Positions 8,057 to 50,184 of a DNA stretch of 64,000 nucleotides are shown here, piece by piece. This DNA comes from an uncultured Anaerolinea sp. (GTDB lineage Bacteria; Chloroflexota; Anaerolineae; Anaerolineales; UBA4823). The notes beneath the pieces were generated by a model. It ran no database searches and was not told the DNA's origin. It saw nothing but the letters and a program-made list of their open reading frames with translations. The position numbers were made by a program, and so were the translations under genes. The stretch spans positions 74,133 through 138,132 of the forward strand of contig CAZHFU010000002.1 of assembly GCA_964531975.1 (NCBI GenBank). The letters are read 5' to 3'. The first letter of the stretch is position 1. Every line of letters starts with the position of its first letter.

Positions 8057-8216
8057 CGCGCGCAACCCCGGCCATCAGTTAAAACTATGGCGATGACCCC
8101 CAACCCCCGGAGCCAAGGCGATTGAAGGTCTTGCCATGCTCCTGGGACTGCGCTGCAGTTAAGGCATCCCTTACAAAGCCCAAATTTCCGCTCTGGTGAG
8201 ATAAAAATTGGGTACA

Positions 8217-9128
8217 ATGCATGGCATGGAAAAAATAATTTTTGCCACCCGGCCCTCAGCGTTAGCCCGTTGGCAAACCGCCTATGTAATCCAGGCGCTG
8301 AGCGCGCTGCACCGCGGGCTGACCTGCGAAGAGCGCATCATCACCACGCAGGGCGACAAAGACCTGGCCACGCCCCTGCCCCAAATGGGCGGAAAAGGCG
8401 TCTTTACCCAGGAATTGGAGCAAGCGCTGCGTGACGGTCGGGTGCAGGCGGCGGTGCATTCGCTCAAAGACCTGCCCGTAGAAGACGCCCCCGGCCTGAC
8501 CACGGCCTGCATTCCGCCGCGCGGCGAAGCGCAGGATGTGCTGATTTCACGCGACGGTTACACCCTCGACACCCTGCCCCAAGGCGCCCGCCTGGGCACG
8601 TCCAGCGTGCGCCGGGCGGCGCAGCTTCTGCACCTGCGCCCCGATCTGTCCATCCAAGACCTGCGCGGCAATGTCGCTACCCGCCTGCGCAAAGCCTTAG
8701 CCGGCGAGTACGACGCGATTGTGCTGGCGGCGGCCGGGCTTAGCCGCCTGGGGCTGCTGGAGCACGTCACCCAGCGGCTGCCCGTGGAGGCCATGCTGCC
8801 GGCTCCGGGGCAAGGCGCCCTGGCGGTGCAGTGCCTGTCTGGCAATGAAGCCGTGCTAACCCTGCTGGCGGCCCTGGACGACCTGCCCACGCGGCGCTGC
8901 GTGACCGCTGAGCGTGCCTTTCTTCAGGGGTTGGGGGGCGGCTGCGCCGCGCCGGTGGCGGCCTTAGCGCGCACCGATCCGCGATCACATCATATATTCT
9001 TACAAGGCCGTCTGCTCTCACCTGGCGGACGCCGTTCGATCACCGTGACGGGCGCCGGCCCTGATCCGCTGGAATTAGGCCGCCGCCTGGCCGCCAAGGC
9101 GCTCGCTCAGGAAGCCGCCCAGGCGTAG
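8217..9128 (+). CDS. hemC: Hydroxymethylbilane synthase (porphobilinogen deaminase)
   Basis: Recognised motifs are IIFATRPSALARWQT, TTQGDK, GGKGVFTQELEQAL, AVHSLKDLP, GTSSVRR, RGNVATRL and GGGCAAPVAA. The start is ambiguous between TTG 8208, ATG 8217 and ATG 8226. Confidence 0.93.
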   Translation: MHGMEKIIFATRPSALARWQTAYVIQALSALHRGLTCEERIITTQGDKDLATPLPQMGGKGVFTQELEQALRDGRVQAAVHSLKDLPVEDAPGLTTACIPPRGEAQDVLISRDGYTLDTLPQGARLGTSSVRRAAQLLHLRPDLSIQDLRGNVATRLRKALAGEYDAIVLAAAGLSRLGLLEHVTQRLPVEAMLPAPGQGALAVQCLSGNEAVLTLLAALDDLPTRRCVTAERAFLQGLGGGCAAPVAALARTDPRSHHIFLQGRLLSPGGRRSITVTGAGPDPLELGRRLAAKALAQEAAQA

Positions 9129-9167
9129 CCGGGCGTCTCCGGGCGGGCGCGATGCCGGGCCGCAGCA

Positions 9168-9398
9168 GCGCCTTGCACAGCCGCGCCTTGCACAGCAAGC
9201 GCCTTGCACAGCCGCGCCTTGCACAGCAAGCGCCTTGCACAGCAGCGCCTTGCACAGCAAGCGCCTTGCACAGCAGCGCCTTGCACAGCAAGCGCCCTGC
9301 ACAGCAAGCGCCTTGCACAGCAGCGCCTTGCACAGCAGCGCCTTGCACAGCAAGCGCCCTGCACAGCAGCGCCTTGCACAGCAGCGCCTTGCACAGCC
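9168..9398. repeat. Tandem repeat, 15 copies of GCGCC(T/C)TGCACAG separated by 2- or 3-nt spacers (unit 15/16 bp)
   Basis: Counted directly: core copies start at 9168, 9183, 9199, 9214, 9230, 9245, 9261, 9276, 9292, 9308, 9323, 9338, 9354, 9369 and 9384. Spacers are cc, ca or caa. All six frames are open across it only because the unit contains no stop codon. Confidence 0.95.
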
Positions 9399-9582
9399 GC
9401 CTTTGGCGGCGTCTGGCCCGCGCCAGACCGGCATATCGCTCGTTGCAGCCTGGCCTTGCGCAGCCAGGCGCAGCTTGGCGCAGCTTGGCGCAGCCAAGCA
9501 CTGGCAAGCGGCCTCAAGCTTCGCCGGCCTCTGGCTTTCAGGCTGCACGCCAATGAGAACGCTTCACTCAGGAGGACGCCAC

Positions 9583-10593
9583 ATGGACGATTTTGTCAAA
9601 CGACCGCGCCGCTTGCGCTTAACCCCCACCCTGCGCCGGATGGTGCGGGAAACAGAAATTAACCCGGCTGATTTTATTCTGCCTATTTTTGTACGCCATG
9701 GGCGCGCCGTGCAAGCCGAAATCGCGTCTATGCCCGGCGTGTACCAATGGTCGGTAGACCTTTTGCCCGGGCTGGCCCGCCAGGCGCGCAGCCTGGGCAT
9801 TCCGGCGCTGCTGCTGTTTGGCATCCCCGCCGTCAAAGATGCGGCCGGCAGCGAAAACTTCGCCCCCGATGGCATAATCCAGCAGGCCCTCCGCGCCATC
9901 AAAGACGCCGTACCGGAGCTGGCGCTGATCACCGATATCTGCTGCTGTGAGTACACCGATCATGGGCACTGCGGCTTGCTTAACCTTGGCCCGCAGCGCG
10001 ACCTCCGCCTGCCGGAAGGCTACCTGCTCAACGACGCCACCCTGGAGGTGCTGGGCCGGGTGGCGGTGAGCCATGCCCAGGCTGGGGCCGATATCGCCGC
10101 CCCCAGCGGCATGATCGACGGGATGGTCTCGGCGATCCGCCGCGCCTTAGACGCCGAAGGCTACGCCCATCTGCCGGTCATGTCGTATGCGGTTAAGTAC
10201 GCCTCCGGTTTCTATGGCCCGTTTCGCGACGCCGCCCAATCGCCCCCCCAATTTGGCGACCGCAAATCGCATCAGATGGACCCCGCCAACGCCCGTGAGG
10301 CGCTCAAAGAAGCCGCCCTGGATATTGAGCAAGGCGCGGATATGCTGATCGTCAAACCCGGCCTGCCCTACCTGGACGTGCTGTACCGCGTCCACCAGGC
10401 CTTTCCGCAAACGCCCCTGGCGGCGTATAACGTGAGCGGCGAATACAGCATGCTCAAAGCCGCCGCGGCCAACGGCTGGCTGGACGAACGCACCGTGATC
10501 TTGGAAAGCCTGACCGCGCTCAAACGCGCCGGCGCTGATTTGCTGATCACCTATCACGCGCTCGAAGCCGCCCAATGGCTGCAATCGGCCTGA
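9583..10593 (+). CDS. hemB: Porphobilinogen synthase (delta-aminolevulinic acid dehydratase), Zn-type
   Basis: The SD ggagga at 9571-9576 precedes the ATG at 9583. The N-terminus MDDFVKRPRRLRLTPTLRRMVRE is canonical. The Cys-rich metal site reads DICCCEYTDHGHCG, and the active-site region VKPGLPYLD is present. The track start at 9235 reads through the tandem repeat and is rejected. Confidence 0.93.
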   Translation: MDDFVKRPRRLRLTPTLRRMVRETEINPADFILPIFVRHGRAVQAEIASMPGVYQWSVDLLPGLARQARSLGIPALLLFGIPAVKDAAGSENFAPDGIIQQALRAIKDAVPELALITDICCCEYTDHGHCGLLNLGPQRDLRLPEGYLLNDATLEVLGRVAVSHAQAGADIAAPSGMIDGMVSAIRRALDAEGYAHLPVMSYAVKYASGFYGPFRDAAQSPPQFGDRKSHQMDPANAREALKEAALDIEQGADMLIVKPGLPYLDVLYRVHQAFPQTPLAAYNVSGEYSMLKAAAANGWLDERTVILESLTALKRAGADLLITYHALEAAQWLQSA

Positions 10594-48522: not shown

Positions 48523-50184
48523 TTAATCCGTTGCAAAAAACGTGCCATCATCCAATATCCGGTCCACCTGGCAGCCGGATTGGCGCAGCATCTCGATAGC
48601 CTCCGGCGAGATGGCCCCATCCCCGCCCACCACCGTCACCCGGGCGGCATGCTGCGCCTCGGCTAAAGAAAAACCAATCGTGGGATGAGAGACGCTCAAC
48701 ATTGGTTCGATGAGCGCCAGGTCCCAATTTGCAGCGCCCCAGGCATATAGGGGCAGCAGAATGTAATGGGAAATCGCAGCCCGGCCGCCGGCCCGCATTT
48801 CAACCGGCGGAGCAGCGAGCGGCGCAGGCGCGGGGGTCGCCGCGGGGGTCGCCGCGGGGGTCGCCGCGGGGGGCGCGGGCTTTGGCGTGGGGGGCGCCGC
48901 GGGGGGCGCGGGCTGTGCGGTGGCCGCCAACTCAACCGCCCGACCTCGGCTATGCGCAGGGCTTCCGCACTCCAGGCCCGCTGCGCCTCGGTTATCCATC
49001 CGCTCTCCCCATTTCTCCGCTTCCACCCCGGCGCCACGCTCCGGCGGCCAGGTTATGTCATCCCAGCTTTCTAGTAAAACCGGCCACAGCCGCCACCCCA
49101 CAGGCCCGGCTTCCCCCGCCCCGCCGCCAACCAATCCCCGCCCTCGGTCGGGCGCGGCCGAGGTTTGCGCATCCTCAGCCGCCCGAGACGCGCCTTGCCG
49201 TACCTGGTTAGCCACCCATTGGCGCAGCGCACCGGCCGCCGGCAGTGGTTCTTCGCCCGGCGTAAACCAGGCCTGCGCCGACCAGGGATCCTCCGCCTCG
49301 GCGGCTAGCAGCCAAAAGTTGCACGCTAACACCGGCGCATCCAGCCGCGGCACGCCCACTTGCTCCCCGGCCAGGCTGCGCGCCAGCGTCTGATGCACCT
49401 GGGCATGCCGCAATCGCTCCGCCAGGGATAGGCCCGCTCGCGGCCCCTCCGGCATACGTTTTCCGGCCCGCAGCAGCAGCACCGGCGGGGCGAAGCCCAA
49501 TTCCTCTTGCGCAATGCTGCTGTACCAATCGGCAATATGAAAACCACGCTGGTCTTGACAGCCCGACGGACTGCTGCACGACCGGTAGGGGCGAGCTTGC
49601 GGCCAGCGCCCCGGCCCGCCCGCCCCCCAATCCAGCCCGGCGGGGTTCACCCAGGCATCGGCGCTCAACGCCAAATTGGTGAGCAGCTCCGGCTCGGCCT
49701 GGCGGCGCAGCACTTTCAGCGCCCGCCGCAAAAAGGCCAAATCCCAATAATCGCCCCCCGGCTCTAGCGGCGGCAGCACCGGACGGATGCCATACGCATG
49801 CGAGAGACGCGCCAGGGGCAAAAAGCTGTCCACAAATCGCTCCACCAGGTCGCCCTGCGCCCACGCGCCGCCCCAAGCACTGCGCAGGTTAGGGTGATCG
49901 AACCAGGCGATATAGCGCACTCCCCAATCGGCATAGGCGCGCACCAGGGGATGTAATTCTTGAATTGTTTGCCCCATTACAAGTTGGGAAAAATGCAGTA
50001 CCGGTTGGATGCCCGCCTGCCTCAGACCCGCGATAAACTCTTCGGGGATGGCGCGTTGGTTAGGGGCCGCCAGGGTCAACCAAGACGCCCCCAGCCCGGT
50101 TAATACCGGCAGCCAGGCATCTAAATCACTACTGCGATAGTGATGAGAATCTGCAAAATAATGAAATCCCAGGCGTTCAAACAT
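48523..50184 (-). CDS. Hypothetical protein, N-terminal TIM-barrel/glycoside-hydrolase-like region, P/A/T-rich linker, small C-terminal domain
   Basis: The 553-aa ORF has a gaggag SD. The N-terminus reads GFHYFADSHHYRSSDLDAWLPVLTGLGASWLTL...YIAWFDHPN. The linker reads PAPPAAPPTPKPAPPAATPAATPAATPAPAP. The family assignment is only an impression. Confidence 0.65.
   Translation of the reverse strand: MFERLGFHYFADSHHYRSSDLDAWLPVLTGLGASWLTLAAPNQRAIPEEFIAGLRQAGIQPVLHFSQLVMGQTIQELHPLVRAYADWGVRYIAWFDHPNLRSAWGGAWAQGDLVERFVDSFLPLARLSHAYGIRPVLPPLEPGGDYWDLAFLRRALKVLRRQAEPELLTNLALSADAWVNPAGLDWGAGGPGRWPQARPYRSCSSPSGCQDQRGFHIADWYSSIAQEELGFAPPVLLLRAGKRMPEGPRAGLSLAERLRHAQVHQTLARSLAGEQVGVPRLDAPVLACNFWLLAAEAEDPWSAQAWFTPGEEPLPAAGALRQWVANQVRQGASRAAEDAQTSAAPDRGRGLVGGGAGEAGPVGWRLWPVLLESWDDITWPPERGAGVEAEKWGERMDNRGAAGLECGSPAHSRGRAVELAATAQPAPPAAPPTPKPAPPAATPAATPAATPAPAPLAAPPVEMRAGGRAAISHYILLPLYAWGAANWDLALIEPMLSVSHPTIGFSLAEAQHAARVTVVGGDGAISPEAIEMLRQSGCQVDRILDDGTFFATD
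48832..48914. repeat. Short GC-rich tandem repeats inside the P/A/T linker coding region
   Basis: The unit gggggtcgccgc occurs 3 times in tandem at 48832-48867. The unit cgccgcggggggcgcgggct occurs twice, at 48862-48881 and 48895-48914. Confidence 0.7.

Follow-up and report, generated by a model that had tools for sequence, protein, structure and literature searches.

The window, a stretch of 64,000 nt of a short-read MAG (95 contigs, 4.29 Mb, 58% GC), carries the adjacent and co-directional genes hemC and hemB within a tetrapyrrole gene cluster. The two genes are separated by a gap of 454 bp, measured from the hemC stop codon to the ATG of hemB, and this gap holds a tandem repeat array followed by several short hairpins and a mini-repeat (Table 1). 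The assignment of the hemB start to position 9583, together with a Shine-Dalgarno (SD) sequence of its own, goes back to the initial annotation of this DNA and is upheld here, as the AGGAGG motif lies 7 nt ahead of the ATG and an RPRRLR motif six residues past the ATG aligns with that of the relatives, whose N-termini vary in length. Neither a sigma-70-like promoter consensus nor an intrinsic terminator consensus was found in 8900-9800.

Table 1. Features of the hemC-hemB region (positions are those of the window).
Feature	Coordinates	Strand	Basis and remarks
hemC (porphobilinogen deaminase)	8208..9128	+	Pfam PF01379 (2.4e-76) and PF03900; stop codon TAG at 9126-9128
GC-rich unique lead-in, hemC stop to array	9129..9162	+	Contains ATG 9152; single genomic copy
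Minisatellite, 15 cores GCGCCYTGCACAG with CC, CA or CAA spacers	9163..9397	+	TRF, pattern search, unit parse
Two adjacent short GC hairpins, CCGCC-TTT-GGCGG (9397-9409) and GTCTGG-CCCGCG-CCAGAC (9411-9428)	9397..9428	+	DNA fold
Third hairpin, GCCTGGC...GCCAGGC	9448..9469	+	Polymorphic, not conserved (run X8)
10-bp mini-repeat GCGCAGC(C/T)(A/T)(G/A)G, ~3.9 copies	9458..9496	+	TRF, sequence
hemB Shine-Dalgarno sequence AGGAGG	9570-9575	+	7 nt before the ATG; sequence
hemB (delta-aminolevulinic acid dehydratase / porphobilinogen synthase, ALAD)	9583..10593	+	Pfam PF00490 (3.2e-138), residues 6-332

TRF reports a single array, which can be read with a period of 15 (score 388, 15.3 copies, 92% matches) or with a period of 31 (score 412, 7.6 copies, 94% matches), and together with the pattern search it recovers the 15 copies of GCGCC(T/C)TGCACAG, separated by cc, ca or caa, that had been described in this gap. 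The array is confirmed as a real tandem repeat far beyond chance, with 15 copies of the 13-nt core (9168 to 9396, every one on the plus strand) observed against 0.57 expected and none of 100 dinucleotide shuffles reaching that number. Its copies stand head to tail, its unit falls within the 10-100 bp of a minisatellite (TRF and core count) and its position, between the hemC stop at 9128 and the hemB start at 9583, is a non-coding one. The spacers (CC three times, CA six times and CAA six times) give rise to units of 15 or 16 bp, whose order can be written as ACACBCBCC*BBCB*BA (A, CC; B, CA; C, CAA; the asterisk marks a C-variant core, of which there are two, in units 9292 and 9354). The alternation of 15- and 16-bp units is strict over the first eight of them, where the 31-bp dimer proposed as a higher-order unit is indeed seen, and becomes looser beyond, such that a regular alternation does not hold for the array as a whole. 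Units spaced by CAA also create a 13-bp palindrome, CTTGCACAGCAAG (5-3-5), which occurs six times in the array.

The array is non-coding. This had been argued before from the hemB start and its SD sequence, and it agrees with the drift of the reading frame between units and with the negative codon scores obtained here. The array is open in all six frames, an observation that is uninformative because, by our estimate, roughly one in two random units of 16 bp with such a GC content would be free of stops on both strands. Under a log-likelihood model of codon usage that was built from the long ORFs of the genome, hemC and hemB reach +0.30 and +0.37 per codon, respectively, and the six ORFs that cross the array range from -0.20 to -0.35. 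Because units of 15 and 16 bp are intermixed, the reading frame rotates along the array, and any peptide made from it would cycle through three motifs. Both a coding repeat and an upstream start of hemB are ruled out by codon usage and frame drift.

A more specific coding model would be that of a translated bridge, in which an ORF of 134 codons at 9152-9556 (ATG 9152, TGA 9554-9556) keeps ribosomes on the mRNA through a MIRU-like coupling, and in which a slip of a single 16-bp unit (+1 frame) would shift the frame of ATG 9152 into that of hemB. The geometry is suited to such a model, as 24 nt separate the hemC stop from the start of the ORF and 27 nt its end from the hemB ATG, the array is open throughout and the hemB frame runs without a stop from the array to 9583. 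However, this ORF overlaps neither gene, scores -0.20 per codon, has no SD sequence ahead of its ATG and would yield a frame-rotating, low-complexity peptide, and its open frame is no more than what about every second random unit would provide. We consider a translated bridge extremely unlikely.

The short hairpins and the gcgcagcttg duplication reported downstream of the array are present at 9397-9409, 9411-9428, 9448-9469 and 9458-9496, and the mini-repeat resembles the main unit in sequence (CCTTGCGCAGCC versus CCTTGCACAGCA). Among the folded segments only the pair of hairpins at 9397-9428 is conspicuous (DNA fold of -11.9 kcal/mol, z = -2.86); it has no U-tract and is kept in the RNA centroid. 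The whole hemC-hemB spacer folds with z = -1.82 relative to shuffles and the leader that follows the array (9397-9600) with z = -1.72, slightly better than shuffles. The array itself has z = -0.39 as RNA with a wholly unpaired centroid, and its unit or dimer as single-stranded DNA has z = -0.8 to -1.3, which is not above shuffles; a stable RNA or single-stranded DNA structure of the array was rejected on these values. In a landfill run (X8) the third hairpin has lost its 3' arm, which after the substitutions 9457 T>G, 9465 C>T and 9466 A>T reads as a further copy of GCGCAGCTTGGC; this is repeat homogenisation at the cost of the structure of this hairpin. A search of 9129-9582 against Rfam gave no match even at E <= 1, and the only two sub-threshold matches lie inside hemB.

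These data bear on the earlier proposal of a structured RNA spacer, and more broadly on a structured or protein-sponging RNA (a leader or an sRNA) that would control hemB translation or mRNA stability. Such an RNA would draw on the probable transcription of the array, on the two tight hairpins behind it and on the slightly better than random fold of the leader. It is nevertheless very unlikely, since the array has an empty centroid, the third hairpin is broken in X8, no Rfam family is represented and homologues that could reveal covariation are absent from genome_contigs and metagenome_contigs.

The array sequence is unique. In the 4.29-Mb genome the exact core is confined to this locus, and cores with one mismatch are found at ~18 sites, compared to 9.8 ± 10 (maximum 39) for a null of 40 permuted motifs. 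Outside the array a single one of these sites is non-coding and all others lie inside genes. The palindrome CTTGCACAGCAAG is likewise absent from the rest of the genome, and the unit dimer is absent both from a collection with one genome per species for 185,579 species (genome_contigs) and from JGI metagenome contigs (metagenome_contigs). A dispersed repeat family, for which a search of this and related genomes had been recommended, can thus be rejected, with the exact core at one locus and near-matches at chance level. The unique spacer flanks of the array have no second copy in the genome either, and because of this the array is not MITE-like or otherwise part of a mobile element.

The same searches weigh against the suggestion that a regulator of tetrapyrrole genes binds the DNA of the array at its repeated units, a reading that can be extended by the CTTGCACAGCAAG palindromes of the CAA-spaced units and by 31-bp dimers of about three helical turns. 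Fifteen copies of one motif on the same strand, six of them completing a 5-3-5 palindrome, in a tetrapyrrole gene cluster and with a period close to three helical turns, are what such a regulator might be expected to use. However, the palindrome is confined to the array, cores with up to one mismatch are no more frequent than chance allows and, with a single exception, lie inside genes, no such site is present in the hemC-hemB gaps of relatives, the array follows hemC without a promoter consensus in its vicinity, and the genome has many other arrays that are built from unrelated units. A binding-site array is therefore very improbable.

Other classes of short repeats can be compared in the same way. 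REP/BIME elements occur in hundreds of dispersed copies and as inverted pairs, and iterons are found at replication origins beside a Rep gene. The array resembles both in being a short, GC-rich, intergenic repeat with a small palindrome in its CAA-spaced units; in contrast to them, its motif is confined to a single locus and its copies are all direct. REP/BIME was rejected on this single locus and on the single-stranded DNA fold of the unit, and an iteron set on a motif that is neither enriched outside the locus nor present as a palindrome elsewhere. It is not a CRISPR array, as its units abut with linkers of 2-3 nt; true CRISPR arrays are present elsewhere in the genome (C21 and C58).

The comparison with relatives places the origin of the array within this lineage. 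A hemB match was obtained in 13 of 31 related genomes, and in four relatives of the same genus (hemB ~70-73% identical) hemC directly precedes hemB; no relative above 90% identity, which could have dated the expansion, was among them. The gaps between the two genes in these four measure ~21, 44, 58 and 114 bp (from estimated start calls), are AT-richer and are free of the repeat, whereas ~0.8-1 kb separates hemC and hemB in more distant relatives. The array is hence lineage-specific, its orthologous gap being repeat-free in all four congeners, and as these gaps are short, the whole 454-bp spacer, beyond the array alone, is new in the lineage. One of the four gaps (G004) holds a 12-mer, TGCACAGCCGCC, that equals the last unit together with the 3' edge of the array (P ~0.015 by shuffling, ~0.06 when allowing for four relatives). 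This 12-mer is at most suggestive of a possible ancestral seed present as a single copy.

Since the source assembly is built from short reads, the array was also followed in Logan contigs. Its left junction, its right junction or interior pieces were recovered with 0 mismatches in at least seven independent studies, the runs with array pieces being X1-X4 (one study), X5, X6, X8, X9, X11 and X12 (independent biofilm, wastewater, landfill and bioreactor studies) and X10 and X13 (unlabelled study). No empty site, that is, a joint that skips the array, was found among the sampled Logan runs. Given this recurrence and the absence of empty sites, the array exists as real DNA and appears to be fixed in the species, being present in every population of it that was sampled. 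Several independent studies agree exactly in the left junction and in the first four units, and between populations only unit-level variants were seen in the array, such as a T>C unit variant at 9235 in X10 and X13; together with the homogenised mini-repeat of X8, this variant speaks for dynamics of a repeat type. The fixed array, with its constant left end, is thus at least partly stable. The initial annotation had offered a hypervariable minisatellite prone to slippage as one of three possible functions; among the three, the slippage-prone minisatellite alone is in keeping with the unique locus, its absence in relatives and the ~59 other arrays of the genome, and hypervariability finds no support in the identical left end and the unit-level variants.

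The contigs also show where the assembly has to be read with care. Position 9368 is where all Logan contigs with the exact HemB begin, as k=31 assemblies break in the array, and k=31 contigs are incomplete inside it; a look for Nanopore or PacBio runs gave none. The depths of unitigs fit the assembled array only in a rough way: a unitig predicted at 2x was seen at 1.8-2.3x of the baseline, a unitig at 9183-9227 predicted at 1x was seen at 1.2-2.4x, and contigs of X1-X3 leave the unit at 9292 uncovered. The breaks at 9368, the deviating depth of 9183-9227 and the uncovered unit could be taken to mean that the array is a mis-assembly of the short-read MAG, but both junctions and many interior pieces recur without mismatches in independent studies and the 2x unitig behaves as predicted, and we give an artefact next to no credence. 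The copy number of 15 and the order of the units, which come from a short-read MAG, may be heterogeneous; the existence of the array and both of its junctions are independently confirmed.

Further arrays were surveyed in the genome with TRF (score >= 80) and a rough codon-usage gene map (86% coding). Among 139 TRF clusters, 17 are pieces of CRISPRs and ~59 are non-CRISPR intergenic arrays, which are unrelated in unit sequence, have periods between 7 and 228 bp and lie between convergent genes (16), divergent genes (8), co-directional genes (15) or at contig ends (20). The genome is in this sense prone to repeats. A common period that could act as a ruler was rejected, given this range of periods and multiples of 3 at a chance proportion (21 of 59). 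The genome-wide figure of 32 arrays per Mb is inflated by CRISPRs and contig ends. On large contigs the density is 11-19 per Mb, compared to 7.5 per Mb in 400 kb of a same-genus genome, and this modest difference of only ~1.5-2x does not amount to a strong excess of repeats over the congener. Loss of mismatch repair as the reason for a repeat-rich genome was likewise rejected, MutS being intact (982 bits). Chloroflexi have been noted as rich in satellites, with Chloroflexus aurantiacus holding the most satellites among the bacteria of a prokaryotic satellite survey (PMC6749651), a point that we take as a lead, and the array is similar to the satellites of that survey in coming from this phylum.

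Contigs of two sludge metatranscriptomes reach into the array. In X25 the contigs 9093-9196 and 9167-9227 lead from hemC across its stop codon into the array, and in X26 a contig at 9308-9352 lies inside it. The depth of these RNA contigs in the array is ~2-4 (no more than 2-3 for those crossing the hemC stop) and similar to that of hemC and hemB coding contigs in the same runs, with carry-over of DNA being possible. The array is probably co-transcribed, in a passive manner, with hemC and hemB.

If the array is part of the hemC-hemB mRNA, it could act as an attenuator that is tuned by copy number. In such a model the 235 nt of untranslated, C-rich RNA would be a Rho-loading (rut-like) or RNA-decay segment, and its length, set by slippage, would fix the HemC:HemB ratio. 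On its sense strand the array is rich in C and poor in G (C 96, G 61, A 50, T 28; GC skew -0.22), its RNA is untranslated and has no stable structure, no internal promoter consensus precedes hemB, Rho is encoded in the genome (609 bits), and the gap of the relatives is short enough for a coupling of the two genes, as against 454 bp in this species. On the other hand, the 15 co-directional intergenic arrays as a group have no significant C-bias on the sense strand (9 versus 5, p = 0.42) and were rejected as support for rut sites, RNA depth in the array and hemB is about that of hemC with no drop, although these data are very thin, and a stochastic tuning would be of no obvious benefit to a housekeeping gene such as hemB. 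We regard an attenuator as unlikely. A little less credible still is its non-neutral extension, an intercistronic rheostat adjustable by slippage, in which array length sets Rho-dependent polarity or decay and with it the HemC:HemB ratio. If this were true, the gain or loss of 16 or 31 bp would also switch which of three open frames enters hemB, and the fixation of the array in all sampled populations and its conserved 5' end would reflect selection.

Taken as a whole, the array looks like an ordinary one, and a role in regulation or structure finds support in none of the tests. Our preferred reading, which we hold with a probability of roughly three in four, is that of a lineage-specific, non-coding minisatellite of the VNTR type that was born by slippage and has no dedicated regulatory role. 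In this scenario slipped-strand mispairing or unequal recombination would have expanded the array in a formerly short hemC-hemB spacer, with steps of 15/16 bp first and 31-bp dimers later. The array would have no dedicated trans-acting partner and would ride the hemC-hemB mRNA as an untranslated stretch, and hemB would be translated independently from its own strong AGGAGG site. Such an array is likely to be near neutral, and its fixation and partial stability are also compatible with some selective maintenance.

Known systems can be set beside this minisatellite. Intergenic VNTRs and minisatellites of bacteria are the loci used in MLVA typing, copy-number polymorphism between strains being the hallmark of a VNTR, and the array shares with them a head-to-tail arrangement, a non-coding position, a single species-specific locus, imperfect copies and a higher-order structure; it differs from VNTRs in being seemingly fixed in all sampled populations and in its conserved 5' end. 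The contingency repeats of Haemophilus and Neisseria have units of 1-8 bp and lie in ORFs or between -35 and -10 boxes of surface and virulence genes. Like these, the array is a slippage-prone repeat near a gene start, and any frame read across it is shifted when 16 or 31 bp are gained or lost, but its unit is of 15/16 bp and it is intercistronic, ahead of the gene of a housekeeping enzyme. A phase-variable contingency locus was rejected, as the array is outside both ORFs and no promoter-like site is present in 8900-9800.

MIRUs often hold short ORFs that overlap the stop and start codons of the neighbouring genes. They are intergenic tandem repeats between conserved ORFs that are carried on the mRNA, dispersed over ~40-50 loci with units of 40-100 bp (Supply et al. 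1997, in PMC3184786). The array, which is not a MIRU, likewise lies between conserved ORFs and is probably mRNA-borne; in contrast to MIRUs, its unit is of 15/16 bp, it occupies one locus and the ORF that spans it overlaps neither gene and scores as non-coding. In M. tuberculosis, tandem repeats in promoters (dop, lpdA-glpD2 and cysG-efpA) have a phase-variable copy number that is invisible to short reads, and their units, of 54-56 bp in the case of cysG, are promoter duplications that raise transcription (PMC12817950). These are the closest functional analogy in the literature, as they too are imperfect tandem repeats upstream of metabolic genes, with cysG being tetrapyrrole-related; however, the units of the array are of 15/16 bp, it has no promoter consensus and it lies inside an apparent operon.

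In practice, the array can mark this species and might be used for VNTR typing of a widespread Anaerolineales population of wastewater, and it cautions that MAGs from short reads break or collapse at the hemC-hemB site. If it does tune hemB, to which no finding points, it would be a natural case in which repeat length controls the stoichiometry of an operon. It also adds an example of the many intergenic minisatellites that Chloroflexota tolerate, even within an apparent housekeeping operon.

The hemC–hemB gap of the same-genus genome G004 (locus L009) is 114 bp and carries a long inverted repeat (CTTTAGCTGGGAGG...CCCTCAGCTAAAG), between whose arms lies TGCACAGCCGCC. This stretch matches the 3′ end of the window's hemC–hemB array exactly (P ∼0.015, uncorrected) and may represent the ancestral form of the array unit, present in a single copy.

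Downstream of the array, the third hairpin (window 9448–9469) differs in an independent landfill population (sequencing run X8) by the linked changes 9457 T>G, 9465 C>T and 9466 A>T. The three substitutions turn the hairpin arm GCCAGGC into an extra copy of the GCGCAGCTTGGC repeat, a pattern that resembles homogenisation of the small 10-bp repeat by a process akin to gene conversion.

Of the 31 related genomes, only 13 gave a hemB match with the first-look filter (6 of 17 among the high-quality ones), meaning that either ALAD is patchy in the family and order or the filter is missing diverged copies. The start of hemC is ambiguous within window 8208–8230, as the longest ORF begins at TTG 8208 (MGTMHGMEK...), further in-frame ATGs lie at the 4th and 7th codons, and the hemC of relatives aligns from about residue 6–9 onwards. 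Elsewhere in the window a 12-bp repeat, CGCGGGGGTCGC, occurs seven times (48829–48909), in frame within a minus-strand ORF, and probably encodes an amino-acid repeat in a protein linker.

The source genome holds further repeats, including two CRISPR arrays whose repeats differ from each other. A perfect (GAAACGA)x7 heptamer array is identical at four sites, three of which lie ≤ ∼2.5 kb from the first base of their own contig, and this position suggests a multi-copy element breaking the assembly. Several intergenic arrays are made up of related ATCCGYT and CAGCCATCCGCTCAATCCG motifs in both orientations and appear to form a family of composite repeats that is dispersed in the genome. Finally, in contrast to the hemC–hemB unit, which is not dispersed, a 21-bp unit (rotations of GCCCCAGAAGCCGCGNGTGTC) is common to two arrays, so this genome has at least one dispersed minisatellite family.

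Repeat arrays of the source genome
Array	Position	Copies
CRISPR, repeat GTCGCCCCCCGTCCGGGGGCGTGGATTGAAAT	C21:23301-31291	
CRISPR, repeat GTCGTAATACCCTTGCGGGTCTGAGGTAATTCCTAC	C58:507-2296	
GAAACGA	C7:102-150	7
GAAACGA	C69:2372-2420	7
GAAACGA	C71:2296-2344	7
GAAACGA	C31:41755-41803	7
ATCCGYT / CAGCCATCCGCTCAATCCG	C34:28653-28951	
ATCCGYT / CAGCCATCCGCTCAATCCG	C44:24107-24292	
ATCCGYT / CAGCCATCCGCTCAATCCG	C4:174789-175059	
ATCCGYT / CAGCCATCCGCTCAATCCG	C15:74373-74594	
GCCCCAGAAGCCGCGNGTGTC	C47:1-517	25
GCCCCAGAAGCCGCGNGTGTC	C10:106173-106291	5.7
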